DNA of 64,000 bases. Origin: Podarcis gaigeae. Its lineage: Eukaryota. The DNA lies in the NCBI GenBank assembly GCA_964106915.2, contig OZ066916.1; one strand, written 5' to 3'. Position 1 is the first letter of the stretch. Each line of letters begins with the position of its first letter. Below the pieces are notes generated by a model. That model was not told the origin of the DNA. It saw only the letters and a list, made by a program, of their open reading frames with translations, and did not search any database. Shown piece by piece: positions 41,201 to 63,432 of the stretch. Position numbers and translations under genes: made by a program.

Positions 41201-44200
41201 CCAGTGTATAGTTAGCAGAGTAAAAACTTAAACTCATTGCAAGAGTCCCAAAAAGTAGACCAGAGGCAATTATATTTCATCCAGCAGAGCTTTACTGCTA
41301 CTGAAGGCAAATGAGCTTAATGGTCACAAATCCAATACATTGAGGATTGGCACTGTCCATAAGAAATCCAGTTGCAGCAGACTTAACTTAAACTTACAAT
41401 AACTTATAATAAGTGTAAAGCTTAACGCTATATACAGAACACCACACCAGAAGGGAGAAAGAGAAAGGGAAGCCCAGGCTCCTTCTGGCCTTACTTTATA
41501 AAAGTGAATTCTGCTTACATTATCACACTTCTCAGCATGAGCCTTGACAGAAGAGATAACAAAACCAGTTTAAGCCATCTGTACTCAGTTTCTCTGAAGG
41601 AATAACCCAAACGTCATGAACCTTCTGTTTTTTCTTTCACACAGAGAAGCTTCCAGAACCCTCTTGAATTAATTAGAATAGGAAAGATCTCTACACATCA
41701 GATCAATACTTTCTGCACTAAGAAATGCAAACTGACAAGTTAGGCTTCCCCTCAGTCAGCATGTTGCTGATTTAAATTGCATCAGACCATTAGTCCACCT
41801 AGCCAAGGACAGTGTCTAACCACCTGGCTGATAGTCTTCCAAGTGGATGTGCTGTGTCTTCCTGAGACAAAGCATTATTGTCCATAGCTGAGTGTTTCTT
41901 CATGCTAACTGTGGTCCATATTTTGAAAGTTTCATCCACCGAAGGTAATACTGGGGACTCGAGTAATAGCCATTGATTTCTGAGTGTGACTTAGGTTATT
42001 ATCACCCACTAAATCTACTTTAGACTCAGCAATACTACTCTGAAGCTCAGGTGCCATTAAATAGGTTAGAAAACAGTCTACAGTTTCAGAAATTAAATGT
42101 AGAATAATAAAATTCTGACATCAGTAACCATTTTGTATTTTAAATATCCAGCGCTGGTGCCTAATGAAAAAAGTGGGAATCTTGCTTGCATTCTTGATAT
42201 CGATATGTTTCATTTATTGGTAAGTACCTTTATAAATTCTGACAGTGCTGCAATGCCATATGCCATATATCATTAGCTTAACTTTTGGAAAGAAAGTCCG
42301 GCGCACTGGAAATAATGTCTAGCAAAATATTTTTATGAAATATAGCAGAAAAGAAAGGTTGCAGGTCAGAGTCCCACAACAGGAAGTAAATACTTGATGT
42401 ATGAGTGACTTTTCCTTTGGTTTACTGAAGTAGTGGGTCAGTAGTTAACATTCAAGGTCAGCCCTGTTTGTTGCTTTATGTAAGGATGCTGAAAAGATGG
42501 CTTTGCGGGATTGGGTTAAGCAGACGTAAATGGGGAATGGATGAGAGAATTCAATCGTTCTGTCTCTTATAGATTTTCCCCTTGTCTACAGGTGTGCTTG
42601 GTGCTCTCTTTCCCTGCTGTACACAGCCAGGATTTTTCAGGAGTTAGTCTTGGTACTGGAGATATTCATATCTTCCACCTTGTTACTATGGCACATATTG
42701 TACAAATAATGCTTACCTCATCCACAGGTAATGTGTTCTGTTTAAAGTTATGCTGATTTGTGCATGAAGGGAAACTAGAGAAGGGAAGAGAAATAATTAT
42801 GGCTTCCTGGGCAAAATAATGGTTAACCGTGATGCAGGTGTATATTGTGATAGTTGCAGTTATGCTTTATGAAACGAAAAGCATTGCTCCAGTGCAACTT
42901 TTTGTTAATGCTGCTATGTTCTTGGTATATAGATTTAGCAAGTTTTCAAATTGCACAAGGTTCTCTGGTGAAGCATCCACAACACTACAATTAGGTTTAG
43001 ACTTATTTGTTCACTTTTCAGAAGAAAATGGCATGGACCAAGAAAATCCTACTGGTGAAGAAGAAGCAGTTCTTGCTTTGCATAAATGTCTTGGCCGGTA
43101 TGCAGGAAGGTAAAATCATAATTTTTGGTGCAGCCTTTCCAGACATTGTTCTACTTCACTTGCCTTCTCCAAGCTTAATATATGTGGAAGCTCATTTCTT
43201 ACTCTCCAGAGGTGGAGCTACATGGAGAAAACTTTCTGCTGACTATTTCAGATAAGCTCTGATGAGCAGGCAGACTTTCAGGTGTTCTGGTCTTTCAGGT
43301 GTTCTGGTCTTTCAGGTGTTCTGGTTTAGAGCTTGAAAGAACCCAATGTGGGGCTCAAACCCACAACCCAGAGATTAAGAGTCTCATGTTCTACCAAATG
43401 AGCTCAGGGCTAGCTCAATGACATGATACTGCTTTACATGTATAATGTAGATGGGGCCTTAGTTACTGTGGGGTGATTAAAGATGTGGGGTTGGCCCTGG
43501 GACTGAATAGTGTTTTGACTTCGTATCTACTTTAAAAAACAATGAAGTCAGAAGATTTGGGGTGGAATCCAATTGGTGCCCTTGCACTCTTTTCACCCAG
43601 TGAAAGCTTTCACTAATTGAAAATAAAGGAATATTATTATTATATTGCTGATTTTCCTGTATCACCTCGACTCCACAGCACCCCTAAAACAGCTCTACAG
43701 AATTTGGAGACATTCCAGAACAGGGCCCTGCTATCCCATTAGCAAAGGCATCCGCTGGATAAATAAATAGTCATTCTGTGAGCACAAGGGCACCAGTTGG
43801 ATCACACCCTTTATTTCCCTGCCTGGGCACTTAATTGATGAAATGCAAAATCAATTAAATGTTTGTGGCATTTTGTGTAACTTTTAAGATTGATTTCACA
43901 AAAATTCTATATCTGTTTTTATTCTTAGTGCCTTCAAAGAAATGTCCTCTGGATGGCATCTATGGAGAAGTATAAAAGCTGGGATCATGCCTTTTCTGAG
44001 GTGCTCTGCTATGTTCTTCCACTATTTAAATGGTGTTCCAGTACCACCAGAATTGCAAGGTATAAAATCAGTTAGCCACTTTGAAGCAATAATGTGAATG
44101 GCTGGTGAAGTGTAATTTTAAACACTAAAGAATGAATTGCAGCTTTGTATATTCAATATTATAACTAATTTGTCTTGAAAATGGAAGTGAGGTGTAATGT

Positions 44201-47200
44201 GATTTTATGGAAAGTGCAGTAGTGGATAATTAAATTTTGGATAGCTTACACTTGTGAACAAAATATGCATTAAATAAGGAACAAAAATGAAAAACAATAA
44301 CCTTGCAGAATTACCATACCAGGTGTAAAGAGCTAAATATAAACTACAGTGGCCCAAATCCAGAGAACATTAATTGTGCTTAAGTGCCATTAAAATAAGT
44401 AGCTTGTCATGACTAATTTTATGTCCCATTAATTTCAAGGGGACTTCAGTTGGGCTTTGCATGTGGGCCTATTAGTTTTCCCTTGGTTGTTGCTATATTT
44501 CGCTAATTCAGTTAATCTCATTGGAAATATGGGTTCTTTTAACTGCACATCTTACAATGTGATACATATCCTCTACCAACAATCCCCTTGCACATTCTAC
44601 ATAGGACAGACAGGTCAGCTTCTGCACAGAGACTCTATGCAAACCATTGGAGGGAATTTTCAACATCACAAAATAGTCTGTAACCAACCTTAAGGTGATC
44701 ATGCTGGAAAAGGGGAACTTCAGAAGGAAACTGCAATATGAAACCGCTGAATCACAACAATGTATATACCTGTATATACCTGTAACTCAGGGTGTCATTT
44801 AATGCATCTCTTTGAGCCCCCCCCCCAGCAGTATATAAATTTTATGAAATAAATAAATAAAAGCATCTAGCGAAGCAAACTGTAGTCCATGAAAGCTTAT
44901 TCCCTCTTAAATGTTAGTCTATTGCAGCACAAAACATAACTATTTTTGTGGAACCGTAAAGACTGCAAAATGGCTACTTCTCTGGAAATTATACACATGC
45001 GTACATGTTTGTTTGGGGAGTTCCTTACAGATGATTGATTCATCTAACCATCATCATAATATATCTTTCTTTTTTCTCTCTCCCGTTGCAGTCAGTGGGG
45101 CAAACCAGTTTGAACATTTATGTAGCTATCTCTCTTTGCCAAACAACCTCGTTTGCCTTTTTCAAGAAAACAGCAAAATTACAGATACGCTGGTTGAAAG
45201 GTAGGAACGATATTTATTATTTCAATTTAAATAACTATACAGTGGAAAAACACTTTTTTTTTTTGGTAGAGTGTTTATATCAGATGACAGAGAGAACTAG
45301 CAGTGTGTGCATTTAGAGACAACCTGATAGTTAAACATTATAAATCACTGACACATGCTTATTTAAAATAGTGCAGGGCAGCAATTGCATCCATGTAGTA
45401 CACATTTGCATTGTTCTGTGCTGTTACAGGCAAATGTGAGTATTTTGCATCACACAGCTATAAGGATTGGTACTACCTCATTGCATTGGAGTATAGTTCC
45501 CAAATGCAAGATCCTGGAGTGGAGATAGCTGTCATTCTAATGGTGGCATACAGCTGTTGCAAGATTTTGTGATGGGATTGCAATAGACAGCCTATACCAC
45601 AGTAGATCTCCTCCCCACCCCCAAAAAATATGTGAAATCTGATTCTGCTGTTGGAATGCTGAAAGCTGTTTTTGAGAAATATCACAGCATTAAGAGTATT
45701 TAAATTACAACGGGTTTGATCCAGAGATGCTCTTTCGCAAATGGAAATTCTGGATGCAGGATCTGGAATGATGTACTTCTCAGTTGGCTCCTACAAGAAT
45801 GAACCCTAACCTTCCCCTCCCCCCCCTTTCCATTAACAGCTGGTGTAATAATGATGAAGTAAAAAGATACCTGCAAGGTCAGAGACAAGCCATAAGGTAA
45901 GTAAGAGAAAACCAGCAGGAGGGAAAGATTCAGGGGTGTGTAAGACATGCTGCTCACCCCTGTTTTATCTGTGAATGGGGCAGACTTGCAAGCGGTGGCT
46001 CTGCCACATCCCTTTTGGCCTTTAGTTGGAGTTTGTTCATAGGCTGTGTGGGTACCTCATCCTCCCGCTACCCTGCTTCTTACATTGTAGGTCCAGTTAG
46101 CCTAATTAGCTGTTTTCTTAAAAAGGAGTGTATAAATCCATGATGGAGTTTCTAGTGATAGAGTAAGGGGATTGCATACAGCGATGCTGTCCTTGAAAGA
46201 AGCCTACCAATGTGGGAACATGGTTGAATGAGCAGACAAGTATCAATCCCATTGCGGCTTCTCTCTTCCTAAGAGTTACCATACCTTCCTATTGCTCTTT
46301 TCTACTGCTTACCTCTCCTCAGCGTGCATGCCTCTGTTTGCTATCTCATTTACATCTTTCCAGTGTTTTTGTTGCCTGTCCTGATGCAGGTAATGACAGG
46401 TTGAAATTGAAGCCCGGTTGAAATAAGGCCAGGTCATTCATTTCTGCCAAGCATGTTTGAATGTGGGTAGCCACCACCTTCTCAAGCCCCTTGCCCAGGA
46501 AGGAGATATTTGTGACTGGGCAGTAGTTGTCACATACCCTTGGGTCTAGGGAAGGTAGTCTTCAGGCGTAGCTGCATCACTGCCTCCTTCAGAGCAGCAG
46601 GAACTGACCCCTCCCACAAAAAGGCAAGGGTCACCCAAGCTGATCTCACTAAGCTTGTAGTTAAAGGTCTTTCAATAATAAAAAAATGTCAATACTACAT
46701 TATAGCTTAACAGTGAATCCATATGTACAGTAATAGATCAAACTGTTTACATACTGAAGCCAAGTTTGAAATGTATTAATGTGTATTATTGGTTCGTTTC
46801 ATTTTAGCTACCCGCGAGAATCTAACAAATTAATAGACCTTCCCGATGATTACAGTAGCCTCATCAATCAAGCTTCTAACTTTTCGTAAGTCTTATGCAA
46901 TTCCTTATGACCACCTTGATTTTTATTGAAATAATTCTGAAGCTCAGCGACAGGGTATATAACCTTTGCAGTCTTTGGCATCTTCCGTTGAAGGGGGTCT
47001 TAAAGTTTTGAAAAAGTTGAAGGTTTTATTAAAACTTTCATGAATGCTTTGTTCAGCTCCTCACTTTCTGTATCCTTAAAAATACTAAACACATTTTACA
47101 AGTTTTTTAAACTTTCAAAATATAGGCTTGGGCCTCAATGTGCTCTCCATGGGCAAAAGGGGATTTCTCGATTTGGTGTGAAAGAGGTATCAAATATTGC

Positions 47201-49854: not shown

Positions 49855-50927
49855 AATGTACCAGAACCTTTTGTCTTATGGTGCCAGCCTCATGGAAAAT
49901 GTGTAGTTTGGGGAATAACGAAAGTCTGGGGAAGCATAGATTTCACCAAGGATTAAGTACCAGTTGCATATGGGAAGCTAATTGGAATTAGGAAAAAAGC
50001 ATCAATCTCTGCCTGCCTCATCTAGTTAGGATAAAGAAGACTTAACATTCTATATACCACATCTCGAGTATTCAAACTGCTTCATGTACATTATCTAATT
50101 CAGGTGTGGACAGACCTCTGGCTTGTGGGATCTACTTTGGGGTTTGTTTGTTTGTTTGTTTGTTTGTTTGTTTGTTTGTTATTTGAAACCCCAAGATCCA
50201 CCAGCCAGAGCCAAGTGCAAAAGACATACACTTGAATATTTCTGGGCCCTTCTGATCACTCAGAGATCTACCTTTTTCTGACCCCTGAACTAAGTAATCT
50301 TTACAGTCAGCCTTGTAAGGTCACGCAATACTTCAGATGGTCATGGGCATATGAGGGAATAGACGATACCCCAAGGTGTCAGCGAGGTGATGCTTAATGG
50401 ATGTGGATATGATGAGGAATGCCTGGCTGGTGACTTGCATTTCTGGCCTCTTAGTAACATCAACTTTCAGCATGTGTCCAGGCCATTGGGAGGAGGTGAG
50501 CTTTACTGAGCTTTGCTGTTATGAGCCTTTTTCTCCGATAGCTTTTAGTCACCTGCTTCCATACAGTGCTGCCGCTGGTGGTTTTCATTATTGTTTTTTA
50601 AAAAATATGTTTCTTTTTCTTGGGTTTACTGTTTGCCTGATTGTTTCAGCCCTGAGACCAGGGCATGCTTATAAACGTTGCAAACAAATGGTTTTTTTAA
50701 TTTATTTTTACATGTAAGATAGCATTTGGAACTTGGAATATTTCATGTTCTTATAGTTGCTTTTTCATGGACTTTTCTACCCTAGACGAGGGAATCCTTT
50801 ACATCTGTGCAGAGAGCGATTTAAAAAGATCCAAAAACTCTGGCAGCAACACAGCATTACAGAGGAAATAGGACACGCACAAGAAGCAAATCAAACGTTA
50901 GTAGGAATCGACTGGCAACATTTATAA
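2883..50927 (+). CDS. UBR2: UBR2 E3 ubiquitin-protein ligase (N-recognin), multi-exon CDS, exons 2-47, 5'-partial
   Basis: 46 exon positions (exon 11 duplicated) splice in frame at GT-AG sites to 5184 nt ending ...GIDWQHL*. UBR box ([17 protein letters not shown]...CDCGDTEAW), ClpS-like domain ([12 protein letters not shown]), RING-H2 (CILC...CGHIMHAHC...CPLC) and C-terminal [20 protein letters not shown] are recognisable. The downstream neighbour is PRPH2, as in other amniotes. Confidence 0.97.
4445..4523 (+). CDS. UBR2: UBR2 exon 3 (UBR box)
   Basis: tcag|A GAT TGT...AGG|gttagt; [26 protein letters not shown]. Confidence 0.95.
6008..6160 (-). mobile_element. tRNA-Asn-derived SINE with CR1-type 3' tail
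   Basis: Minus strand: ggctgttaacc...ggttggtagttcaagcccacccagggtc (tRNA-Asn GTT-like), then ttggactagatgacc...ccttccaac and attctatg-type tail repeats. Confidence 0.7.
7028..7141 (+). CDS. UBR2: UBR2 exon 4 (UBR box)
   Basis: gtag|ATG...GAG|gtaagg; [27 protein letters not shown]. Confidence 0.95.
7442..7576. mobile_element. hAT-type palindromic MITE
   Basis: TIRs caagcataggcaaact/agtttgcctatgcctg; 8-bp TSD gactaggg (7434-7441, 7577-7584). Confidence 0.85.
7697..7827 (+). CDS. UBR2: UBR2 exon 5
   Basis: ttag|GATCCT...ACAGT|gtaagt; [18 protein letters not shown]. Confidence 0.93.
8720..8858 (+). CDS. UBR2: UBR2 exon 6 (ClpS-like N-domain)
   Basis: acag|T GAG...GAT|gtaagt; [26 protein letters not shown]. 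Confidence 0.95.
10368..10430 (+). CDS. UBR2: UBR2 exon 7
   Basis: acag|GGA...GTG|gtaagt; [21 protein letters not shown]. Confidence 0.93.
11620..11740 (+). CDS. UBR2: UBR2 exon 8
   Basis: taag|AGA...TCAG|gtactg; [23 protein letters not shown]. Confidence 0.92.
12333..12440 (+). CDS. UBR2: UBR2 exon 9
   Basis: ttag|ATGGC...AAAG|gtgggc; [35 protein letters not shown]. Confidence 0.93.
13030..13180 (+). mobile_element. Penelope-like element terminal fragment with hammerhead motif
   Basis: 14-bp TSD taaaaacaagataa (13016-13029, 13181-13194); near-identical to 62247-62366. Confidence 0.75.
13043..13078 (+). ncRNA. Minimal type I hammerhead ribozyme motif (PLE type)
   Basis: tat-CTGAAGA-a-gtgtg(catg)cacat-GAAA-gc-TT-ata. 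Confidence 0.6.
13641..13729 (+). CDS. UBR2: UBR2 exon 10
   Basis: acag|GAGCT...AGG|gtgagt; [29 protein letters not shown]. Confidence 0.93.
13788..14140 (-). mobile_element. L2-clade LINE 3' fragment
   Basis: ORF 13861-14157 RT C-terminus (...[15 protein letters not shown]...); (taa)n tail. Confidence 0.8.
14177..14312. mobile_element. hAT-type palindromic MITE
   Basis: Long TIRs caggcatggccaaacttggccctccagctgtttt; imperfect 8-bp TSD. Confidence 0.8.
15116..15214 (+). CDS. UBR2: UBR2 exon 11A (alternative, 99 nt)
   Basis: ttag|AAT...CTG|gtgagt; [33 protein letters not shown]. Confidence 0.9.
15284..15382 (+). CDS. UBR2: UBR2 exon 11B (alternative, 99 nt)
   Basis: atag|AAT...CTT|gtaagt; [33 protein letters not shown]. 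Confidence 0.9.
16567..16635 (-). mobile_element. Degenerate 5S rRNA-derived SINE/pseudogene fragment
   Basis: gtattctcaggtgatctcccacctagtaact...ctgctttcgct resembles the reverse complement of the 5S 3' half. Confidence 0.45.
16653..17173 (-). mobile_element. L2-clade LINE 3' fragment (second subfamily)
   Basis: ORF 16837-17157 [28 protein letters not shown]...[12 protein letters not shown]. Confidence 0.82.
17275..17438 (+). CDS. UBR2: UBR2 exon 12
   Basis: atag|GCT...TTAAA|gtgagt; [15 protein letters not shown]...[10 protein letters not shown]. Confidence 0.93.
17526..17625 (+). CDS. UBR2: UBR2 exon 13
   Basis: tcag|G TAC...CAG|gtaggt; [19 protein letters not shown]. Confidence 0.93.
17895..18023 (+). 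CDS. UBR2: UBR2 exon 14
   Basis: gaag|GGC...GAT|gtaagt; [23 protein letters not shown]. Confidence 0.94.
19548..19731 (+). CDS. UBR2: UBR2 exon 15
   Basis: atag|GAG...GCAG|gtaagg; [10 protein letters not shown]...[12 protein letters not shown]. Confidence 0.94.
19960..20105 (+). mobile_element. L2 second-subfamily 3' tail
   Basis: tagccgctctgagcccggcttcggctggggagggcg plus (tta)n; reverse complement of 16673-16723. Confidence 0.7.
20601..20807. mobile_element. Non-autonomous DNA transposon (agggttgcc/ggcaaccct TIRs)
   Basis: Terminal inverted repeats agggttgcc ... ggcaaccct. Confidence 0.55.
21045..21407 (-). mobile_element. Full-length Sauria SINE
   Basis: Head gggacgcaggtggcgctgtgggttaaagcc, (acctt/t)n tail, 12-bp TSD gacaaggggtta (21033-21044, 21408-21419). 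Confidence 0.92.
21722..21783 (+). CDS. UBR2: UBR2 exon 16
   Basis: atag|GTTTG...ATG|gtgagt; [20 protein letters not shown]. Confidence 0.92.
22636..22692 (+). mobile_element. CR1-type 3' tail fragment
   Basis: gtcccttccaactc...attctatgattcta. Confidence 0.6.
22892..23002 (+). CDS. UBR2: UBR2 exon 17
   Basis: gcag|AGT...CAA|gtaagt; [37 protein letters not shown]. Confidence 0.95.
23430..23657. mobile_element. hAT DNA transposon end fragment
   Basis: GC-rich gggccg repeats ending ...ttgccaacccctg. Confidence 0.5.
23890..23955 (+). CDS. UBR2: UBR2 exon 18
   Basis: gtag|ATA...CAG|gtaaca; [22 protein letters not shown]. Confidence 0.94.
24704..24826 (+). CDS. UBR2: UBR2 exon 19
   Basis: ttag|ACA...AAG|gtaagc; [25 protein letters not shown]. 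Confidence 0.93.
25310..25373 (+). CDS. UBR2: UBR2 exon 20
   Basis: tcag|GAT...GTTG|gtaagt; [21 protein letters not shown]. Confidence 0.93.
26347..26471 (+). CDS. UBR2: UBR2 exon 21
   Basis: gcag|GAGAG...GAT|gtgaga; [10 protein letters not shown]...[24 protein letters not shown]. Confidence 0.94.
27132..27184 (+). CDS. UBR2: UBR2 exon 22
   Basis: gcag|GAG...TTCAA|gtaatg; [17 protein letters not shown]. Confidence 0.92.
27812..27935. mobile_element. Old Penelope-like fragment with inverted degenerate hammerhead motifs
   Basis: ctgatgaagtggac (27858, +) and catctgatgacatgg (-), followed by ...taagatgctacaggactctttg. Confidence 0.5.
27965..28012 (+). repeat. (GGAA)n microsatellite
   Basis: Direct inspection. 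Confidence 0.95.
28270..28372 (+). CDS. UBR2: UBR2 exon 23
   Basis: ttag|G AAA...AAG|gtaaca; [34 protein letters not shown]; its 3' end is triplicated (see repeat). Confidence 0.93.
28349..28499 (+). repeat. 51-bp x3 tandem repeat spanning the exon 23 donor
   Basis: ttttcaagggcagarcaatccaaggtaacaatgaaatataaataaattgta at 28349, 28400, 28451. Confidence 0.97.
29332..29380 (+). CDS. UBR2: UBR2 exon 24
   Basis: taag|GCG...ACAG|gtacct; [16 protein letters not shown]. Confidence 0.92.
30059..30213 (+). CDS. UBR2: UBR2 exon 25
   Basis: tcag|CTCTC...AGG|gtgtgt; [25 protein letters not shown]. Confidence 0.93.
30327..30429 (+). CDS. UBR2: UBR2 exon 26
   Basis: ttag|GTT...TCAA|gtaggt; [15 protein letters not shown]. 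Confidence 0.92.
31170..31402. mobile_element. Tc1/mariner (Tigger-like) MITE
   Basis: ta|cagtggt...accactg|ta with TA TSD; internal ttcttaaacc repeats. Confidence 0.75.
31761..31883 (+). mobile_element. BovB (RTE) LINE 3' fragment
   Basis: ggtccatggggtcacgaagagtcggacacgact plus (caa)n tail; aatgtttg direct repeats flank it. Confidence 0.88.
32138..32247 (+). CDS. UBR2: UBR2 exon 27
   Basis: acag|GGCCT...AAG|gtaaat; [36 protein letters not shown]. Confidence 0.93.
32341..32421 (+). CDS. UBR2: UBR2 exon 28
   Basis: ccag|ACT...GAG|gtaaaa; [27 protein letters not shown]. Confidence 0.9.
33032..33213 (+). CDS. UBR2: UBR2 exon 29 (basic E2-binding region)
   Basis: gtag|AGC...AATAG|gtaaga; [32 protein letters not shown]. 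Confidence 0.94.
33704..33903 (+). CDS. UBR2: UBR2 exon 30 (RING start)
   Basis: branch-point-like tactaat, ctag|T CCT...CCTG|gtaagt; [12 protein letters not shown]...[10 protein letters not shown]. Confidence 0.94.
34407..34500 (+). CDS. UBR2: UBR2 exon 31 (RING)
   Basis: gcag|AAAAA...CAAAG|gtaact; [29 protein letters not shown]. Confidence 0.95.
35578..35739 (+). CDS. UBR2: UBR2 exon 32 (RING end)
   Basis: aaag|G TAT...AACAG|gtcagt; [22 protein letters not shown]. Confidence 0.95.
37224..37864 (-). mobile_element. Putative solo LTR with nested MITE
   Basis: TG...CA ends; minus-strand CCAAT (37805), TATA-like (37771) and AATAAA (37498) in U3-R-U5 order; no clear TSD. Confidence 0.45.
37302..37437. 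mobile_element. hAT-type palindromic MITE (young)
   Basis: Perfect TIR arms cagtgtttcccaaccttgtgcctccagatg; perfect 8-bp TSD cattactc. Confidence 0.9.
38161..38214 (+). repeat. (CT)n microsatellite
   Basis: Direct inspection. Confidence 0.95.
38336..38682 (-). mobile_element. CR1 LINE 3' fragment
   Basis: cacagaatcacagaat tail repeat, gttggaagggacc...tctagtccaaccc, ctccggagcaggagaaaacaagc. Confidence 0.8.
39003..39100 (+). CDS. UBR2: UBR2 exon 33
   Basis: acag|G TTA...GCTA|gtaagt; [23 protein letters not shown]. Confidence 0.9.
39337..39415 (+). CDS. UBR2: UBR2 exon 34
   Basis: tcag|ATAAA...CCAAA|gtatgt; [18 protein letters not shown]. Confidence 0.9.
40365..40513 (+). CDS. UBR2: UBR2 exon 35
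   Basis: taag|G AAT...ATAG|gtaaca; [11 protein letters not shown]...[13 protein letters not shown]. Confidence 0.94.
40616..40671 (+). CDS. UBR2: UBR2 exon 36
   Basis: acag|AACGG...CAG|gtacga; [18 protein letters not shown]. Confidence 0.92.
40962..41058 (+). CDS. UBR2: UBR2 exon 37
   Basis: ccag|GAT...TCAT|gtaagt; [15 protein letters not shown]. Confidence 0.92.
42152..42219 (+). CDS. UBR2: UBR2 exon 38
   Basis: ccag|CGCTG...TTG|gtaagt; [22 protein letters not shown]. Confidence 0.92.
42592..42727 (+). CDS. UBR2: UBR2 exon 39
   Basis: acag|GTG...ACAG|gtaatg; [10 protein letters not shown]...[20 protein letters not shown]. Confidence 0.93.
43022..43109 (+). CDS. UBR2: UBR2 exon 40
   Basis: tcag|AAGAA...GGAAG|gtaaaa; [21 protein letters not shown]. 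Confidence 0.91.
43275..43325 (+). repeat. 17-bp x3 tandem repeat ctttcaggtgttctggt
   Basis: Three exact copies. Confidence 0.95.
43341..43410 (-). pseudogene. tRNA-Lys(CTT)-derived pseudogene/SINE head
   Basis: Minus strand gccctgagctcatttggtagaacatgagactcttaatctctgggttgtgggtttgagccccacattgggt; anticodon CTT, mutated A/B boxes. Confidence 0.8.
43929..44059 (+). CDS. UBR2: UBR2 exon 41
   Basis: ttag|T GCC...CAAG|gtataa; [29 protein letters not shown]. Confidence 0.93.
44530..44990 (+). mobile_element. Penelope-like element remnant (GIY-YIG endonuclease end plus terminal repeat)
   Basis: [31 protein letters not shown] matches the PLE GIY-YIG pattern; degenerate hammerhead-like ...ccatGAAAgcttat at 44863-44900. 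Confidence 0.72.
45092..45200 (+). CDS. UBR2: UBR2 exon 42
   Basis: gcag|TCAGT...GAAAG|gtagga; [21 protein letters not shown]. Confidence 0.93.
45840..45896 (+). CDS. UBR2: UBR2 exon 43
   Basis: acag|C TGG...ATAAG|gtaagt; [18 protein letters not shown]. Confidence 0.92.
46808..46885 (+). CDS. UBR2: UBR2 exon 44
   Basis: ttag|C TAC...TTTTC|gtaagt; [25 protein letters not shown]. Confidence 0.94.
47599..47769 (+). CDS. UBR2: UBR2 exon 45
   Basis: aaag|G TGT...CTCAG|gtaaga; [30 protein letters not shown]. Confidence 0.95.
47878..49028 (-). mobile_element. L2-clade LINE fragment with a second L2 subfamily copy nested at about 48319-48789
   Basis: RT motifs [20 protein letters not shown]...AARLV and RAF...LWN; two AT-rich tails. 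Confidence 0.8.
49213..49314 (+). CDS. UBR2: UBR2 exon 46
   Basis: tcag|A GTC...CTCAG|gtagct; [33 protein letters not shown]. Confidence 0.95.
49805..49853 (+). repeat. (TTC)n microsatellite
   Basis: Direct inspection. Confidence 0.95.
50786..50927 (+). CDS. UBR2: UBR2 exon 47 coding part (stop TAA 50925-50927)
   Basis: ctag|A CGA GGG AAT; [22 protein letters not shown]...GIDWQHL*. Confidence 0.95.
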
Positions 50928-53040
50928 CTAATTCCTTTCTGAAGACTGGAACTTCATGGTCATCCTTTTATAATCCAGCAAAATTTGTCAGCCGGAAGGA
51001 GGATTAGGAAACAAAGGATTGAAGTAATAAAGAGAAGAGTCTAGTTCTTTTATTGACTTTTCCATGTTTGTATATTTCCTGGTTTCCATAACCATGTAAA
51101 CTTTTCTGTTTAGCAGATTTGATCAATAGTATTATTTGCACTGCTTCTTTCATACACAACCTTTTGATTTCTATAACTTGGGCTACTGAATTTAACATTT
51201 CTATTGCAAAAGTAGCCATCTCCTTGGAGTATGAAACTTTTTGGATAAGAGGAGGAAAAACTCTGCTGAAATGGCAACTTAGCACAATGTTGAAGTGGTG
51301 TGTTCACCCTTTTGTAGTAAATCTGAGCCATTTTGCATTTTAGTACTTAAAACTTGTAATGGAATGAAATAGGGGTGCAAAAAATGTAGCAATGGGTTTA
51401 TCTATAGGAGTGCAGAAGAACACTCATTGTATCTAAAATGACTTCGTAATCTGAAGCCTTGAAGGGCTATTTTGCCTTTGTCTTTCTTCTTCTTAAAAGA
51501 GAACACTTTAATAAGGAAAACTAACTTATTGTATGGATTGTGATATTGACATAGTGGGCAAAAACAGAACGCTGTTGTCCATGCTGTGATTGATAACCTC
51601 CTATGTTTAGAAGGTTGATGTTCTACTTAGTTGATTTGAGATATTGAGTAACATCACCCATCAGAGAAGTCATGCGAAAATGAATTTGGTGTCAGATTGA
51701 ATAGGAAGAGAATAAGAATTTTATTTCATTTCATTTACATTTGTTGATTACCAGCCTTCAAGGTTCAGGATCCTTTCCCCTTTTTAAAGTTCCAAGATAA
51801 AAACATAGAAGGCAAAGTGAGAACCAAGGACAACCCCGCCTCCCACCACATGAATTTCCTTTAATTTGCACCGCCATCTGCATCTATTTGTACGTGGCTG
51901 GTGTTCTGTAAAGAAGTTTGTCTATAGTATATTTTGTAAGTATATTGAAATAACTGCACAGATTTTGCACATGGGTGCCTGAAGGCAGTGAATTTTCTAA
52001 ATATACATTGGGGCCTCAAATAAAACAATATAAAATAACATTATACTTTCTCTAGAGGTTTCATTCTCTCTGTCCCTTCCAAATAGCATCCTTTTAAAAT
52101 AAATAGCTATAATCTGTAATCTTAGTTAGTTCTGATAACTCTTGGGATTTTTCCTAGCTTTCATCTTCAGTTCAGAGGTGGCATCCCACGAACAGCCAGT
52201 ATACTAGCAATTAGTCTACGTTTGGGTTTTTTTCAGTGATCTAACGCATCAAGTAGTGTTTACAGCAGTCTTCTATAGGCTCAGAATAGTGAATACATAG
52301 GACACAAATTCAAAGCTATACCAGTTAGGCTTCCTTTTCTTAGGGAGAATAACTTTTGACAGGACAGGCGTCCATCTGATCAGTCTTCCTACACGTGTTT
52401 ACTAGTAGTTCCTGAGCCTCTCCTTCTTTGCTGAGTGTTGTGTAACTAGCAAGAAAATATTCAGTCTTCATTTTCCCTTTGATTAGGTTGTGAATAAAGC
52501 TATTTGCTGTGCATGTTACAGTTAATGTACTAGTTCTGCTCTGATACTGTTTCTTTGGGATTTTAAAAAAACAAACTTGCTTTAAGAGGCATTTTGTAAC
52601 AATGCATTTAGATTCTCAGTCTCCCCTGCTCCCCTTTTATGGGTGCATAAAACAGAAAAATAGGATCTGCTGCCATTTAACTGACAAGTTTCTATGTAAA
52701 GTAAATATTGAGAGAATAAGGTCTTTTCCCCTCAGGTACTCTAGTCCAAGATGGCAGTCAAATGGGTTGATGGAATTATGACTATATGACATAGGAAAAG
52801 TGTATAAATTTATCCTGTTTTTTTGTAGGATTGCTCATTTTTCAACAACCCATTTTCTTCTCTGACCTTTTTCCTTTTGCATGTATTTATGTTCATTGTA
52901 GAAATGTTTATATAACAAGCTTTCAGTATCAGGGAATTAATACCTGTAATAACTTTCATATCTGTGGACAACTTGTAAAAATTCAAATGTATCATATGTA
53001 TAAAAAGTATAAAAATAAATGCTTTAGGTGTTGACATTCG
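50928..53040 (+). other. UBR2: UBR2 3' UTR (approximate end)
   Basis: Repeat-free AT-rich sequence after the stop. AATAAA at 52019, 52493 and 53014; the last has upstream TGTA motifs and a downstream GT/T-rich tract. Confidence 0.6.
53014..53019 (+). terminator. Probable distal UBR2 polyadenylation signal
   Basis: AATAAA with upstream TGTA elements and downstream tgtgt/ttttt. Confidence 0.55.
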
Positions 53041-53760
53041 ATTGATGTGTAAACCTGTTGATTTATTTATTTTTTAAGGTGTGCCGAATGTTTTGAGTTA
53101 CTAGCTTTTGTGTTTTAAGATTAATAGCCTGGATCAACAACATCTCTTTCTGCATTCAAACATCTGAATTCAAGCATCTTGTCACCATTTTAGTAAATTA
53201 GTATTACACAGCAAAGCACAGAAGAAAGCCTCTGCACAATGCAGGACTACTTCTCAGGAGAAGTGAAGACACCTTTCCCAAGATCATTAAAGGGTCTGGA
53301 AACCAAGCCTTATGAGGAATGCTTGAAGGAGCTGGGTTGTTTAGCAAGCAGTGTTAAAAATGAGTCATGACTTAGTTCCCAGTTCAACGGGGCAAGTGCA
53401 CCTGAGTGGTGACTTAACCCATTGTTTTAAGTACATCTTGCTTATCACACTGGGAAGGGGGTGGGGTTAGGAAAAGAAGCAAAAACAAAACAAAACCCCA
53501 CAAGGTACGAAAATGAGAATTTTATCCAAAGTCCTTCATGCTGGCAATTCAGATGTATAGAAGTTTATTATTATTATTTTGGATCATGTCCTTAAAACAG
53601 GACTTGTTTCAACAAAACATTGAACTTCTGTGTATCTACTTCTGTATAACTGAATTTCCCTGATGGAAGACTGCAATTTTCCACAAAAATAAATCATTCT
53701 CTTTTTCCTACACCTTGCTCTTCACTCCTTTCTCCTCCCATCTTACCACACACAATTATT

Positions 53761-53766
53761 TTTATT
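53761..53766 (-). terminator. Candidate PRPH2 polyadenylation signal
   Basis: Minus-strand AATAAA followed by tgtgtgtggt. Confidence 0.35.
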
Positions 53767-56700
53767 CTTGAAAATGCAAACTCTAAAACCAACAAATAAC
53801 AGTACGATCAAAACTGGAAGGGTAACCTTGAGTCTGGACTTGAAAATAGATCTCTGCATCACCTACCCTGTCGCCTTACTGGAAACAAACTTATCCAGGC
53901 ATTTATCTCTCAGTGGGGAGCTGTTAGCATGTGACATTGTTCTATTTCTCTGGCCTTATCTCTTAATTAACCTCTAATGCTCTTCTTTTTAAAGAGCATT
54001 TTAAAAATACCACATCACCTCTAAATTTATTAGCTGAGGTCGGCGTTAGCTTTAGCATAAGCAAAGTTAACAATAATATTTTTTCCCTTTCTCTGAAATG
54101 CTTAAAAAAAAAATCTACTCGCATCATTGTAAACTCTGCCAGTTACCAGTTCAGCAGAGGTTATCCTTTGCCTGAGGAGCCTGATATAGCCGTCTCCTGC
54201 TCCTGCTAAGCGGCACATGCTCACAGAAGCCATCACTGTCCAGCATTATGTGTGCAGGATAGAGGAGTGCATGGTGGTTAATCTTATAAAATGTATTAAG
54301 GTTACTTAGAAACGATTAGCTCTGAAGCAGCTGTGTGTATACTTTCCTCCCTCTTAGGATGTTTCGCCAAGTGTTCTGTGTCTTGGAGGAAGGGGGGAAT
54401 TTTAAAGTAACACTCGCATTTCTAAATTTGAGCAGAAAAGATGGGCTGTTGTAACTTCCTTGTAAATTCAGTTGGGTGTATTAGGCATTTATAGAACGCG
54501 GAAAGTAACTGCACACCAGCCCAGCAGCCCTGTGTTGTTCCCAAGGTGGCTACATGAGAGCCACATGTCTGAATGAACATTTTTGTCTCTGGATTTTGGA
54601 TATTTTTCACTTGATCTCAAATGAGCCAGCAACCTTGAGACCATTCTGAGATCATCCAAATCATCTAGACAGAGGGTACCAAATTGGTGAAGGCCGATCA
54701 TAAATTTGCCAATCCTCCCCCAGCCCCAGTTGCCGTTCTGTCAAGTGTGCATTTGTGGGGGAGCATGTTTTGTCACTACTTAATATGTCAAATGTTCCTT
54801 TGAGTCTTAAGCTGAAAAAAAACCAGAGCAAATGTTACCTTTCTAGAGCGCTGGACAGTGAATTACAAATCCTTACAGCAAAAAACTATTTACAAAGAAA
54901 CAAATTCCACATAATACTTTAAAATATATATAAGGTACACACTCTTAAAATATAGATAATTTTAATATCTACATTCACATTTGCAAAAATAGCACCTACA
55001 AACATATGTTAAATGGCATTTACACAGAACCTCTTTCTTGATAGGATAAATATATATTACAAATTAATACAAAACAGCCATGTCAAAAGACCCACATGAA
55101 CTGGAATATCTTATCTTGCATGATAGTGCATTTTTTGTTTCATTTCTCAACCACCAATTCCTTCCTTCCTTCTTAATGAGTAACCTTCACCACTAGGTTG
55201 TATTGCTGCCAAAGGGGTGTGATAGCCAAGTCAGTTGGGTGTCAGTTCCAATTTTTTTGCTTGTTCTAAAGGAATCTGCTCAACCTAGTGGCGGAGATTA
55301 TCCACCTTCAGCAAAAGAAGAAAAAGTATTCATTCAGAAGAACGGATCCCTCCCATTTCTGTAAAAACAACAAAAAAGTCTATGTCTCCTGTGTCCTTAC
55401 TAGGAATGGGTGAATCTTTCAGTGTTGGTTTCTCCCAGTATCTTATTATCACAGTCTCTTATTATTCCAATCTTAAGTTTCGTTTTCCACATTTCCACAT
55501 CTGTTCGAAAATCCTTTCTTTAAAAAAAATCCTCATGAATATTCACACACAATTTAAGTCCAAATTTTGTGTGCAATTTTGATGAATATATACATTCTTG
55601 CAGTGCATTTTTTGTAACATGCATTTTTGTAAGTTATTTTCACGAATACTGTATGTCTATTTTCATGCACAATTCCCCCTAAAACATGCATTTTTGAACA
55701 CACTTCTTGGCTGGAGAACTTCACTGTAAAATTCATATAAGTACAAATTTTATAAAATGGTTGTGTTTCTGTTTGTGTATTGTTTCAGAAAGTATGAATT
55801 AAGTAGGTTCACTTTTAAATGTGACTTCAAATGAAATCGTTCCCCATCGCTAGTCCTGAAACAAAAACTGATTCTATAACCTAATATAATACAATATAAT
55901 GAGGTAACTCTTGAGATTAGCTGTGAAATGTGGTGATTTTGTAAGTGAACCCATATATTCTGATATCACAGTAAATAGTGTGTTAAATAAAAACCCCCAC
56001 ACAAATTAGAGGGATATAACCCAACTCTGTACGAAGTGATGGTTCAGTCAAATACTTCTAGGGTTGCAGTAAGCTTAGGTGCAATACAATATACTCTTTG
56101 GAACTTTTCATGACTACTACTCATATGTCAGATACAGAGCATAGCACACTAAAATCTCCCCGGAGAGCATTTTGAAATTTTCTTAATTAAACTCCTTTCC
56201 AGCTGCCTGTTCTTTGAAAAATGTCTCATGTTGACCTAACTAGCACCATTATAGATCTATATACAACAGATTTTGTATATTTAGCTTTAGTTACTGTATT
56301 CCCTAATCTTCAATTGTTTTGTTGCTTCCTGGTTCTGCCATTCATATATATTTCACTGTTTCAAAAACTGAAGTGCATAATTCTTTTAAGAGGTTCGTAC
56401 TAAGGTTCATGATAGTGTTCTAAACATTTGTCTGCAAATATCAAGAATGAATTTGGAAACTGGGAATATGCTGAATTTAACTAACTTCATTTGGAAAAAG
56501 AGTAAAAACTGTACATGCGACCTCGTGTGCGCATACTACTAAAACCACACGCACGCACGCACACACACGCGTGCCAATTTGCCTAGAATTTCATGAAGGT
56601 TACCATTGAACCCTTCCTTTTGTCCTCTTCTGGAACCTAAGCAGTCAGCAAACCCTTAATCATTGCCAAGTTCTTCTTCTTCTTCTTAATAATAATAATA

Positions 56701-57093
56701 ATACCTTTATTGTCATTGTACAACCTGTGTACAATGAAATTAAATGAGCCCCCCTCCCCACAACACTCAATCTCTTATCAAACAACACGCCACCTCACAA
56801 GTCAATTTTGCTATGTTATTTTTCATTCTTCTTTTTGATACCTGCTGCTAAAAACCATGGCTGTATTCCCATCATGACTTAAGGATACTACTGTAACCTA
56901 CTCTTTGTTGACATTCCCCACTTACTGTATCTCTCCCGTATGATTCCTTTACATTGGTGCTCCTTTCTCTGTGATTACATCACTCCTGTGCTTCAGTTTC
57001 TATGCTGGCCTTCCTTTTCACTTCATAACAGCTTCAGTCTCAAGGTCCTTATTTCAGAGGTCTCCCCCTTCTGCGGCTTGTGGCCATAGGTCA

Positions 57094-57162
57094 TCTTCTC
57101 TTATGGCCCCTTGCACTCTCTCTTGTCTTCTTCTCTTATGGCCCCTTGCACTCTCTCTTGTC
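57094..57162 (+). repeat. 35-bp tandem duplication
   Basis: tcttctcttatggccccttgcactctctcttgtc twice. Confidence 0.9.
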
Positions 57163-58901
57163 AAGTGTCCATGCACATAGAATATCCCCATTGGTCCTCA
57201 ACATGTCCAGTTAAAAGGAGCACAGATAACAAAAGCTGGGAAAGGCCTTAGAGAGCTGTCGCCAGCACCAGCCTAGATGGACCGTTTGGTCTGACTTGGG
57301 CTAAGGCAGCTTCATATGCTACCTATGCATTCTTCTGCAAGTCCCTCCTGGCCTTCTCTTTTTCCAGAACGACCTTCCTTGAACTACCATACCCCACTTT
57401 TTTATTACCACAAGTTCACACACACATGTACACTACTCAAAATCTCTTCTCAATCACCCATCCCTTTCTTCTGTCACTTACTGAAGATGGTCAAGTCTTT
57501 GGGACAAAGTACCAGGTCCAACCGCATTTGTTCACAGCACCTAGGAATCTGCTGAAGCTAGCTAACTGCTTTTTGCTTTCACTCAGGAAAGGCTTGCCTG
57601 GCAAATACATGCATGTATGTACAAATAATTAAAGAAAAATGGAAACTTCGTATAGAACAAAGATAAACATCTCTTTACGCAGCAAGCTCTTTCCCATGCT
57701 TCATTCCAGCTTCTAAAATTTAAAAAGTATTTGCTATCTGATCACCACTTTTAGAATAACAGTAAAAGTAATATACAGTCATGCAGAATAACGTGTTTGG
57801 ATTCAAAGTGCACTGAGCCAACTAGGTCATTGAACCCATTATGTCTTCTCTAAGATGCAGAAAATCCAACTTTTTCTGCATTGCATCCAATTTGTTGAAT
57901 AAAAATGTTGACCTTGCTTCGATTATTAGCTTGTGCCTATTAATAGGAGGGGGAAAGGCTCACACCCAAGTGCTGATTTGCGGCAATATTTTTCCTTTGA
58001 CAACCAAACCACTACAAGTTGGTTGCCATGATTACTTCCCAGGAAACAGCAGAATTCTCATGTCCGATTTATTGCAGTTGGTGTGTATGTTAAAACAAAG
58101 TGAGCCTAAAACTCTGAAGTAGTTGAAATACAGGAATACCTACCAAAGGAATGAATGACGTATTGGCATCACAGCACCTGAGCAATCGCTGGCAGCATGG
58201 GCTATAGCTTATCTGCTGTTCAAACCAGTGTGATCTTATTTTTATCAAATGACAAGTTGGTGTTCAGTGCACAGAAATCCAGTACAATTTTACTCTCTGT
58301 TTTTGTGCATCATGTGAACATGGCAGAACAACTTCAAACAACACTTGCGTTTATCGAAAAAATTAGAGGCTATTATGAACTCATACCATTCTCTATGTCT
58401 TTCCATTACTTGGACAATTGAATATTCTTTTGGTCTAGCAAGAACATCCAGAGCAGTGCTTTGACTACCCCCCAGAAAAGTATATTGTTGTTGTTTTTTC
58501 ACAATTATATTTGTAAACTTAAGTACAAAAATAATTAGCTTTAAACTTCCCCATTCGGTTTCCGGTAATGGGATGTGAAACACAAGATAGTGTCGACCAC
58601 TTATTCACACCGAATTTCTTATGAAATATCACTTGCCTCAAAAATAGAATTACCCTAGAAAGTATCTGCTTTAAACTTCACGTTATAGCATTTCCCATAG
58701 AAGTGGTTTTGGCTGTCTACTGTAAGGATGCTTTTATTATCCACAAAGTGCTTTATACTGTTCTCTCCGTATGTAAAAAGTGTATGTTTTGTGCATGCAT
58801 ATATATATATATATATATATAGCTGCGACAGCTTGTACCTTTTTAAAAACCGAATATTCACAAATCTCAGTCTTTGGTAACAGTCTTTTCAGCCAATAAA
58901 C

Positions 58902-59135
58902 TCAACTGACGGTTGAGACAGCTTGGGTTTTTGCACCATCGCCTTCTGCCCCTTCTGTGCCTGCATCCACTTGGTTCATCTTACCAATATTTTTCAAATT
59001 TTCCAGGGTGGATTTGAAAGTGTCTTTCAGGCTCTTCTCCAGCACCCATCCTTCGCTCTCACATTCTGGATCTTCTGGATTGGCAATGCTCTCCAGGGAG
59101 GTATGCAACAGCCGCAACCCTATCATCACCGACAT
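58902..59135 (-). CDS. PRPH2: Peripherin-2 (RDS) last coding exon (exon 3)
   Basis: ccag|ATG acceptor; MSVMIGLRLLHTSLESIANPEDPECESEGWVLEKSLKDTFKSTLENLKNIGKMNQVDA...VSTVS* matches the peripherin-2 TM4 end and cytoplasmic tail (NPE..E.E.EGW, amphipathic helix, NQV). Lies tail-to-tail with UBR2. Confidence 0.93.
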   Translation of the reverse strand: MSVMIGLRLLHTSLESIANPEDPECESEGWVLEKSLKDTFKSTLENLKNIGKMNQVDAGTEGAEGDGAKTQAVSTVS

Positions 59136-61445: not shown

Positions 61446-62094
61446 ACCCAATTCCAGTGCCTTCTCCTGCTGTGTTATACAGCTGCCAGCCATGAATACG
61501 AGCATTTTACAGCGGTGAGGTGAATGGATGAATGAGAAATAAAATTCTGGAGAGTGTTCATTTCCCTTTTTATGCTAATAGCACAGCACGGCGCTGTCAG
61601 GGGTGGGGGGAGGTTAACCTCATAGCACTCATCCAAACCTAATCCCCTGCTGCAAGATATTTACTATATCCTGCCAAGGACTTAAGTAGGCCAATGTCCT
61701 TTCTCCTAGGGCCAACCCTGGTGTCAGGCAGAGCTGGAGGGGGGGGGCGGGGAGTGGCAGACCACTGACGGTTCTTTCTGAGTCCTGAACTGTTCCCCTC
61801 TGCTACTGTCGGCATCAATCCTCTGTAAATCCTAGAAGCTCACAGTTCCGGTCAGGGCACTTTGAGGTTTTTGTTTATTTTAAATGTCACTTAATGTGCA
61901 TACCTAGAGAACTAGGTATATAGAAACCTCTACCTTATTTTTGGATGCCCGCATTTCTGTTCGAGACTGATAGGCAGGCAGTCACCCAAGCTTACCATCA
62001 GAGAGGAGGATGGCTGCTTCAGAACAATAGTGTCTGGGCAGTTAAGAGAGTTCTGAAAAGGCTTCTTCTGTTAGACCAGGATTTCCCAAACTTG

Positions 62095-62366
62095 AAACAA
62101 AAAAAATTGCTTCCAGTAGCACCTTAAAGACCAACTAAGTTAGTTCTTGGTATGAGCTTTCGTGTGCATGCACACTTCTTCAGATACACATTCCCTTCTG
62201 GGCATGTCAGAGTTGGTGGAGCAAGAGGCAAAAATGAGCAAAGCAAGAAGAAGTGTGCATGCACACGAAAGCTCATACCAAGAACTAACTTAGTTGGTCT
62301 TTAAGGTGCTACTGGAAGCAATTTTTTTTGTTTTGACTATGGCAGACCAACACGGCTACCTATCTG
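62095..62366. mobile_element. Penelope-like inverted terminal-repeat insertion
   Basis: Perfect 87-bp inverted arms 62095-62181 and 62247-62333; 12-bp TSD ttcccaaacttg (62083-62094, 62367-62378). Confidence 0.82.
62150..62187 (-). ncRNA. Minimal type I hammerhead ribozyme motif (PLE type), intact core
   Basis: GUAU-CUGAAGA-A-GUGUG(CAUG)CACAC-GAAA-GC-UC-AUAC. Confidence 0.7.
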
Positions 62367-63166
62367 TTCCCAAACTTGGTTATCCAGCCATTTTTTTGGA
62401 CTACAGTTCCCATCATCCATGACTACTGGTCCGGCTAGCTAGGGATGATGGGACTTGTAGTCCAAAAACAGCTGGAGACCCAAGTTTGGGAAACCCTGCG
62501 TTAATGCGAAACTGATGCTAAAGAAGTAAACTAACCTGAAATAAATTAACAGAGGAAATAATGTTGAGTTTGGTTCTGTTTTATGTTAGGCAGGATACGG
62601 CCCTTGACCCCAATCTGAGAATATGGTCTCAAGGCTTCTACTTACCACCGCCCCTCATCCTGAGACTAGATCTGCAATGTTCCTAGCATCTGAATCTAGC
62701 CTGTTTGTGTATGTTAACTCCTCCTACCATACCACAGTCTTATCACAAATGTACCTACTGGGATGCCCTCCTGCCATGGTGGGCTGTGACTTGAGGCCAC
62801 CAGTCTACAGTGGAGTGCCTCTTCCACCCTGCTCACTCACATGTAAAAGACTTGATCATGCCTGATCATCCCTATGGCAGGGATGGGGAACCTTTTTTGC
62901 GACTGAGGATCACATTCCCTTCTGGGCATGCCAGAGTTGGTGGAGCAAGAGGCAAAAATGGGCAAGGCAATGAATGTGGTTTTTTCCCTTTGTACAGCAA
63001 ACTAGCTATTCTGAATTAAAGCAAGCGTCATTATCTGAGGTCAAAGGCACACTCCGGTCAGGAAAAACACTACTGAGGGTTTTAAAAGCAACAACAACCC
63101 TGCAGTGACCACCATCAGACCACCCATTAGCACCATCTAGCCTGATGAACCATCTAGCCTGATGAA

Positions 63167-63432
63167 CAGGACAGATTGTGAAGTTGAGGCTCCAATACTT
63201 TGGCCACCTCATGAGAAGAGAAGACTCCCTGGAAAAGACCCTGATGTTGGGAAACATGGAGGGCACAAGGAGAAGGGGGCGACAGAAGACGAGATGGTTG
63301 GACAGTGTTCTCGAAGCTACCAGCATGAGTTTGACCAAACTGCGGGAGGCAGTGGAAGACAGGAGTGCCTGGTGTGCTCTGGTCCATGGGGTCACGAAGA
63401 GTCGGACACAACTAAACAACTAAACAAGAACA
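63167..63432 (+). mobile_element. BovB (RTE) LINE 3' fragment
   Basis: KLRLQYFGHLMRREDSLEKTLMLG...RWLD...[10 protein letters not shown]; TSD agcctgatgaa. Confidence 0.92.

Follow-up and report, generated by a model that had tools for sequence, protein, structure and literature searches.

A head-to-head Penelope-like element end carrying a hammerhead motif in a PRPH2 intron of Podarcis gaigeae and its probable formation

Here, we report a 272-bp insertion in an intron of PRPH2 in Podarcis gaigeae (assembly GCA_964106915.2, contig OZ066916.1), which is almost certainly the 5'-truncated end of a Penelope-like element (PLE) laid down as a head-to-head pair. It was quite probably made in a single event, as two cDNAs joined by templated repair, and now most likely sits in the intron as a silent passenger. 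In itself, it is an ordinary dead, non-coding PLE fragment and a new example of a published layout. Coordinates refer to the window, which is the whole stretch of DNA analyzed (one strand, 64,000 nucleotides).

Positions 62095 to 62181 and 62247 to 62333 are exact reverse complements (87/87) separated by a 65-nt loop, as the original prediction had stated; the match ends at the very first base on the inner and outer sides alike, and no other exact inverted repeat in the window is as long (runners-up, 58, 49, and 43 bp). Read along the plus strand, the insertion is flanked on the left by a 12-bp target site duplication (TSD; 62083 to 62094, plus), which lies within the left terminal repeat of a host miniature element (MITE) and is identical to the right TSD (62367 to 62378, plus). 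Arm 1 follows (62095 to 62187, minus), an inverted, 5'-truncated, tail-less end of a PLE terminal repeat (pLTR), and then a filler of host origin that makes up the bulk of the loop (62187 to 62246, plus). Arm 2 (62247 to 62333, plus) is a forward, 5'-truncated pLTR end that begins at G5 of the hammerhead core, so that its hammerhead is incomplete, and it continues into a one-sided tail of 33 bp (62334 to 62366, plus), bases that arm 1 lacks. Arm 1 in turn has five to six element bases (62182 to 62187) without a counterpart in arm 2; the adjoining bases 62188 and 62189 may be of either element or filler origin. Element sequence thus amounts to only 93 and 120 bp, with no open reading frame. The tail forms a weak hairpin closing an AC-rich loop (−4.1 kcal/mol), and the minus-strand fold of the whole insertion reaches −176.8 kcal/mol (z = −19.9; 0 of 200 shuffles equally stable). 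The arms and TSD differ at none of 99 sites, bounding pairwise divergence below 3.0% (95% bound), and the recent age that had been proposed can mean no more than this.

This PLE end recurs in a more diverged copy with a single arm at 13043 to 13180 (plus strand), which lies in the sense orientation in an intron of UBR2, within another repeat and between 14-bp TSDs (13016 to 13029 and 13181 to 13194). The first 67 bases of arm 2, over the core region, are identical to 13048 to 13114 at 61 positions, and the 33-bp tail agrees at 26 positions with the 37-bp tail of this copy. Its 5' junction is templated as well, the 13 bases there (13030 to 13042) containing an 8-mer and a 6-mer that are reverse complements of its TSD; in its hammerhead, stem I is mismatched, stem II has a G-U pair at its base, and H17 is U. 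This copy, the tail, and the origin of the loop had been overlooked in the original prediction.

The PLE origin that had been proposed is borne out by an inverted 5'-truncated copy in head-to-head order, a tail of 30 to 40 bp (here 33 bp) on one end only, a hammerhead motif in the terminal repeat, and dispersed copies with short, variable TSDs (two insertions in 64 kb, with 12 and 14 bp). The family may resemble Neptune, and reptile genomes hold many such PLE ends. An inverted 5'-truncated copy with a 30- to 40-bp tail at one end is described as typical of PLEs by Craig 2021 (PMC8557442), and the tail also in PMC11167929; Arkhipova 2013 (PMC3846280) describes inverted pLTRs with a TSD and a 31-bp tail, head-to-head being the commonest order, and, in rotifers, unrelated DNA between solo pLTRs with TSDs. 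The insertion thus resembles those of EN+ PLEs (Penelope/Poseidon and Neptune) in its 5' truncation, inverted copy on the 5' side, head-to-head order, one-sided 30- to 40-bp tail, short TSD, pLTR hammerhead, and unrelated DNA, which is occasionally caught between their solo pLTRs; unlike them, it has no open reading frame, and its captured DNA has a candidate source 724 bp away. In a literature search on squamate PLEs, which mostly left subscription papers outside, this locus appeared in no title among the matches listed.

Non-LTR retrozymes, as presented in a preprint (10.64898/2026.07.22.740005), are likewise short, non-coding, and pLTR related, carry a type I hammerhead, occur in reptiles, and are often monomers and often intronic; that preprint reports hammerhead-bearing pLTR relatives for four of five reptile genomes and an overlap with introns for about 43% of the Xenopus copies. 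They are built from head-to-tail tandem units, whereas the insertion here is head-to-head with a TSD and a tail. A retrozyme identity was rejected on the inverted arms and the absence of a tandem copy from the window.

Elsewhere in the window, a decayed GIY-YIG-like frame at 44520 to 44690 gave an Atlas lead of 0.89 (family on 12% of members) and three unnamed matches that were set aside (E = 5e-6 to 7e-5), with no Pfam family and 0 matches in a word-indexed search. The sequence downstream of it, to 44990, is weakly hammerhead-, pLTR-, and tail-like (for the three queries, 8, 47, and 154 of 1,668 background tiles score as high), and 44520 to 44990 is possibly an old PLE 3' fragment.

With the insertion and one TSD taken out, the flanks rejoin into an older MITE (62077 to 62498; terminal repeats alike at 17 of 18 positions) that is colinear with four other copies in the window (56 to 77% identity, alignments including flanks), so the placement of an exact 12-bp TSD inside a MITE stands. 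This family is hAT-like by its 8-bp TSDs, which agree at 8/8 positions around the copy at 37302 to 37437 and at 6/8 around that at 14177 to 14312; the fourth copy gives 1/8 as scored one base off, and its alignment shows the same 8-mer on both sides. The hAT assignment made earlier is supported for the family and weak for the host copy itself, whose flanks agree at only 4/8. The copies at 37302 to 37437 and 14177 to 14312, both in UBR2 introns, have perfect inverted arms of 58 and 43 bp. A 49-bp stretch, identical in four dispersed copies (13232, 13894, 48008, and 59498; three plus, one minus), is a young repeat family, and a tRNA-like Rfam match at 43340 to 43403 (minus; 33.3 versus a gathering score of 29 bits) is probably a SINE head or pseudogene.

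The last coding exon of PRPH2 lies at about 58905 to 59135 on the minus strand (frame to 59153), by a match to PDB 7ZW1_A residues 283 to 346 (E = 2.9e-17), and a UBR2 exon lies at 35471 to 35755 on the plus strand (PDB match, E = 2.7e-30). Pfam identified none of six frames (one weak, unrelated match, E = 0.021), so the gene names rest on the PDB matches. The assignment to PRPH2 on the minus strand is upheld by this match; the number of the intron, given as intron 2 in the original prediction, is presumed, no exon-2-like frame having been seen by eye above 59140. UBR2, whose last coding exon we take to end near 50925, and PRPH2 are convergent, with about 8 kb between their stop codons (50925 to 58905).

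The minus strand of arm 1 carries a minimal type I hammerhead motif (62187 to 62150) with a 4-bp stem I, CUGAAGA, an extra A, a 5-bp stem II, GAAA, and a palindromic AGCU; cleavage is predicted between 62154 and 62153. A descriptor of the minimal hammerhead, composed after the motif had been seen, found it as the sole strict match in 64 kb; 200 block shuffles gave a mean of 0.025 strict matches, with at least one match in 2% of shuffles. Relaxed to allow one stem I mismatch, the descriptor found a second match on the plus strand at 13042 to 13079 (shuffle mean, 0.135). The motif has the core boxes, the unpaired base after A9, the G10.1-C11.1 pair, the palindromic stem III, and the short stem I of dimer-type minimal hammerheads of PLEs, and stem II with its loop forms a perfect 14-nt palindrome (62162 to 62175 and 62253 to 62266). 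Arm 2 starts at G5 and is without C3 and U4, just as had been noted of the other arm. Rfam returned no hammerhead at the gathering score (1 gathering match) or among 15 matches at E ≤ 5, and the 61-nt hammerhead region by itself does not exceed its shuffles in stability (z = 0.03; 88/200 as good).

This layout agrees with the minimal hammerhead (min-HHR) of the turtle Chrysemys picta (PMC4209133, Fig. S3), which is also of type I, with a 4-bp stem I, a 5-bp stem II, CUGAAGA plus an unpaired base before G10.1-C11.1, and GAAA followed by a palindromic G-C with no loop III; together with the descriptor, it supports the earlier reading of a complete minimal hammerhead with a palindromic stem III on the minus strand. 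Relative to the turtle motif, one stem I pair and one stem II pair are changed on both sides with pairing kept, which points to selection on the hammerhead family, not on the Podarcis copy. The Podarcis motif differs in that stem II and its loop form a perfect 14-nt palindrome, its loop has 4 nt versus 7 in the turtle, H17 is C, and a single sense copy stands opposite a full antisense arm. According to Cervera 2014 (PMC4209133), where the min-HHR is defined, a single min-HHR showed no cleavage in vitro, and a review (PMC6765202) agrees; min-HHR pairs on opposite strands, 100 to 700 bp apart, were already reported in the former. The word intact is accurate for the motif but not for a functional monomer, and stem III requires a second copy. 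The window holds no second hammerhead in the same sense (one minus-strand match; the intron runs past 64000).

The insertion probably derives from two separate cDNAs. The PLE endonuclease would nick both strands 12 bp apart, a spacing taken from the TSD, and from each free 3' end a separate cDNA would be primed on uncleaved element RNA, one presumably starting at the far end of the tail and the other at the tail base, 33 nt inside. Both cDNAs would read through the hammerhead cut site and stop within a few bases of the hammerhead 5' edge; both arms do extend through the cut site and end near that edge. Since two cDNA ends of the same sense cannot pair, they would be joined by repair or template-switch synthesis, which would copy about 60 nt of host DNA, and the outcome would be a head-to-head repeat tailed on one side only. 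The element bases private to each arm argue against a simple fold-back and fit two cDNAs. The bases of arm 1 upstream of G5 include five in common with the copy at 13043 (chance agreement, about 1 in 1,000) and none in common with arm 2.

Biochemical precedent comes from Poseidon of Anolis carolinensis (PAc), for which Frangieh 2024 (PMC11167929) reports that the protein nicks and extends both strands, that reverse transcription starts at two sites bounding the tail, that a dimer is predicted, and that mostly uncleaved RNA is used. The two start points bounding the tail, the AC-rich stem-loop near the distal start, and the reading through of an uncleaved hammerhead all have parallels here, and the distal end lies at +114 from the start of stem II, where PAc starts at 111 to 118 from the same landmark. 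PAc is, however, a different family, and its data, obtained in vitro, do not extend to the joining of two cDNAs. As a counterpoint to two cDNAs, the present insertion contains no reverse transcriptase or endonuclease sequence, and the 5' bases missing from arm 2 could also have been lost afterward in a small deletion. Searches that mostly left subscription papers outside returned only Frangieh 2024 for both-strand target-primed synthesis of inverted PLE copies and one review for Penelope inverted pLTRs with template switching.

A parallel exists in L1 twin priming and templated insertion (10.1101/2024.08.27.596794; PMC11702581): both target ends prime cDNA, the TSD is kept, and the junction can take up copies of genomic stretches of <250 bp. 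The L1 arms copy different parts of one RNA and need poly(A), whereas the two arms described here stem from a common 87-nt stretch, and no poly(A) end is present.

The filler is likely templated host DNA, and sequence similarity points to the element 724 bp downstream as its probable source. Sixty of the 65 loop bases are identical at 57 positions to 62911 to 62970 on the same strand (E = 7.6e-23), and there is no other copy in the 64-kb window. This candidate donor (plus) lies inside a longer MITE-like element beginning at 62878. The left filler junction shares at least 1 base (up to 3) with arm 1, and the right junction shows no exact microhomology. Farther on, a 17-bp direct repeat in tandem (63132 to 63165) stands beside an 85-amino-acid frame (63166 to 63423) that we take to be like a LINE 3' end, and this region truncates the candidate donor element.

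Alternatively, the filler may have had another template, such as a further member of the MITE family to which the nearby match belongs, a host RNA, or DNA flanking the source PLE, and the nearby match would then only reflect family membership; we regard this as possible, though distinctly the less probable origin. It gains from the 3/60 mismatches to the local copy set against 0/99 in the arms and TSD (Fisher p = 0.052) and from published trans capture of DNA between pLTRs. With regard to deaminase editing as a possible cause, the mismatches are all transitions (C/T, G/A, and G/A), none at a donor CpG; they fit another allele, another copy elsewhere, or arms homogenized after an older insertion. 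Templated insertions of L1 usually come from within 15 bp (10.1101/2024.08.27.596794), and the distance of 724 bp here, like the mismatches, weakens a local source. Against an origin elsewhere, the sole match in the window is 724 bp away, and at one copy per 64 kb, a match within 0.8 kb has a chance of about 2.5%.

A single cDNA that snapped back and copied itself, with the filler at the turn and the 5' bases of arm 2 lost later or in repair, is an unlikely origin of the arms. Such self-priming has been proposed for head-to-head PLE repeats (PMC3846280), it would yield the 87/87 identity directly, and synthesis of this kind is visible at the junction of the copy at 13043; but the element bases private to each arm call for an extra deletion, and the junction is a 65-nt non-palindromic loop.

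Under the two-cDNA reading, where the cDNAs stop may be related to the hammerhead itself. The three PLE 5' ends in the window (62187, 62247, and 13043), two of which come from one event, map to −4, −3, and +2 with C3 as the reference, within 7 bases around the start of the core; none is at the cut site, and all read through it. The 14-nt palindrome has a computed intermolecular duplex of −25 kcal/mol versus −4 for its own hairpin. It is conceivable, though rather doubtful, that PLE inverted ends arise on an RNA dimer in which pLTR copies pair via the palindromic stems II and III. A dimeric reverse transcriptase would then prime from both nicked strands and stall at the 5' edge of the dimer, and host repair would use local DNA to bridge the cDNAs; the hammerhead would serve for dimerization and as a stop signal, not as a nuclease, which would explain the positions of the three 5' ends. 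Another possible cause of the clustering comes from Drosophila Penelope, in which the 5' end of stem I coincides with the end of an intron (PMC4209133).

Folding, computed at equilibrium with proteins ignored, suggests that the hammerhead is very likely silent in the context of the PRPH2 intron. The isolated 38-nt motif pairs stem I with a probability of 0.64 to 0.73 and stem II with 0.97 to 0.98, and in arm 1 plus loop with the antisense arm absent, stem I falls to 0.01 to 0.07. In the whole insertion with the antisense arm, the probabilities of stems I and II are both 0.0000, as they are in a nascent RNA that extends 10 nt beyond the cut site. The 87-bp perfect duplex contributes about −164 kcal/mol, and in PRPH2 pre-mRNA the insertion should fold into this hairpin. 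On the PRPH2 strand, the antisense arm is indeed transcribed first, and the loss of the stems in its presence matches the earlier proposal that it would lock the ribozyme; folding with and without that arm in silico shows, however, that stem I is weak even when the arm is absent, and for stem III a second copy is required; the predicted lock is therefore redundant and would close something already inactive. The hammerhead of Poseidon is reported to cut only with its protein present (PMC11167929). The other strand of the insertion, which UBR2 read-through could transcribe, folds equally well (−166 kcal/mol).

The insertion most likely rides in the PRPH2 intron as a near-neutral passenger and would be spliced out, and a function in PRPH2 is not evidenced. 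The original suggestion of something unusual or regulatory is not supported: the layout is the published PLE norm, and a single min-HHR showed no cleavage. It is very improbable that the insertion alters PRPH2 output, whether by a hammerhead that is released under some conditions or because the hairpin is edited or processed into small RNAs. A complete motif does lie on the sense strand, and an 87-bp perfect duplex is long enough for ADAR; some editing is plausible, yet it would not alone make a function. Intronic hammerheads are suspected regulators in amniotes (PMC6765202), but stem III would need a partner and the part of the intron within the window has none in the same sense, single min-HHRs were inactive (PMC4209133), and the stems are absent in context. 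Other perfect hairpins of 58 and 43 bp lie nearby in UBR2 introns, and there is no sign of conservation. miRNA-like Rfam scores were all below gathering (best, 56.8 versus 90 bits) and amount to generic hairpin scores, and a miRNA precursor was rejected on these grounds. A literature search on PRPH2 and hammerheads, judged by title and start of abstract and with subscription papers mostly outside, returned retinal therapy only, absence there being weak evidence.

A pseudo-exon outline can be drawn on the minus strand around the hammerhead, running from an acceptor-like site within the loop, whose first base is 62197, to a donor-like site at 61995, about 200 bases on. Among 186 YAG sites, this acceptor-like site ranks 25th by pyrimidines and 3rd by AG-free stretch. 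A cryptic exon was set aside, an equally pyrimidine-rich acceptor-like site being already present in the filler donor copy.

An assembly or library artifact giving a false palindrome is extremely improbable: perfect PLE inverted repeats are reported to trouble assemblies (PMC8557442), but the TSD is exact, the one-sided tail matches an independent copy, the empty-site MITE is clean, and the window sequence contains no N.

The locus itself matters little, as nothing ties the insertion to PRPH2 biology. Its modest value lies in preserving a clear trace of how a PLE integrated, a process whose final steps the in vitro study did not resolve: arms of unequal extent, copying past the cut site, and a filler of traceable origin suggest that templated repair joined two cDNAs. 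Should 5' ends prove to gather at the hammerhead edge genome-wide, the poorly cleaving hammerheads of PLEs would gain a structural role.
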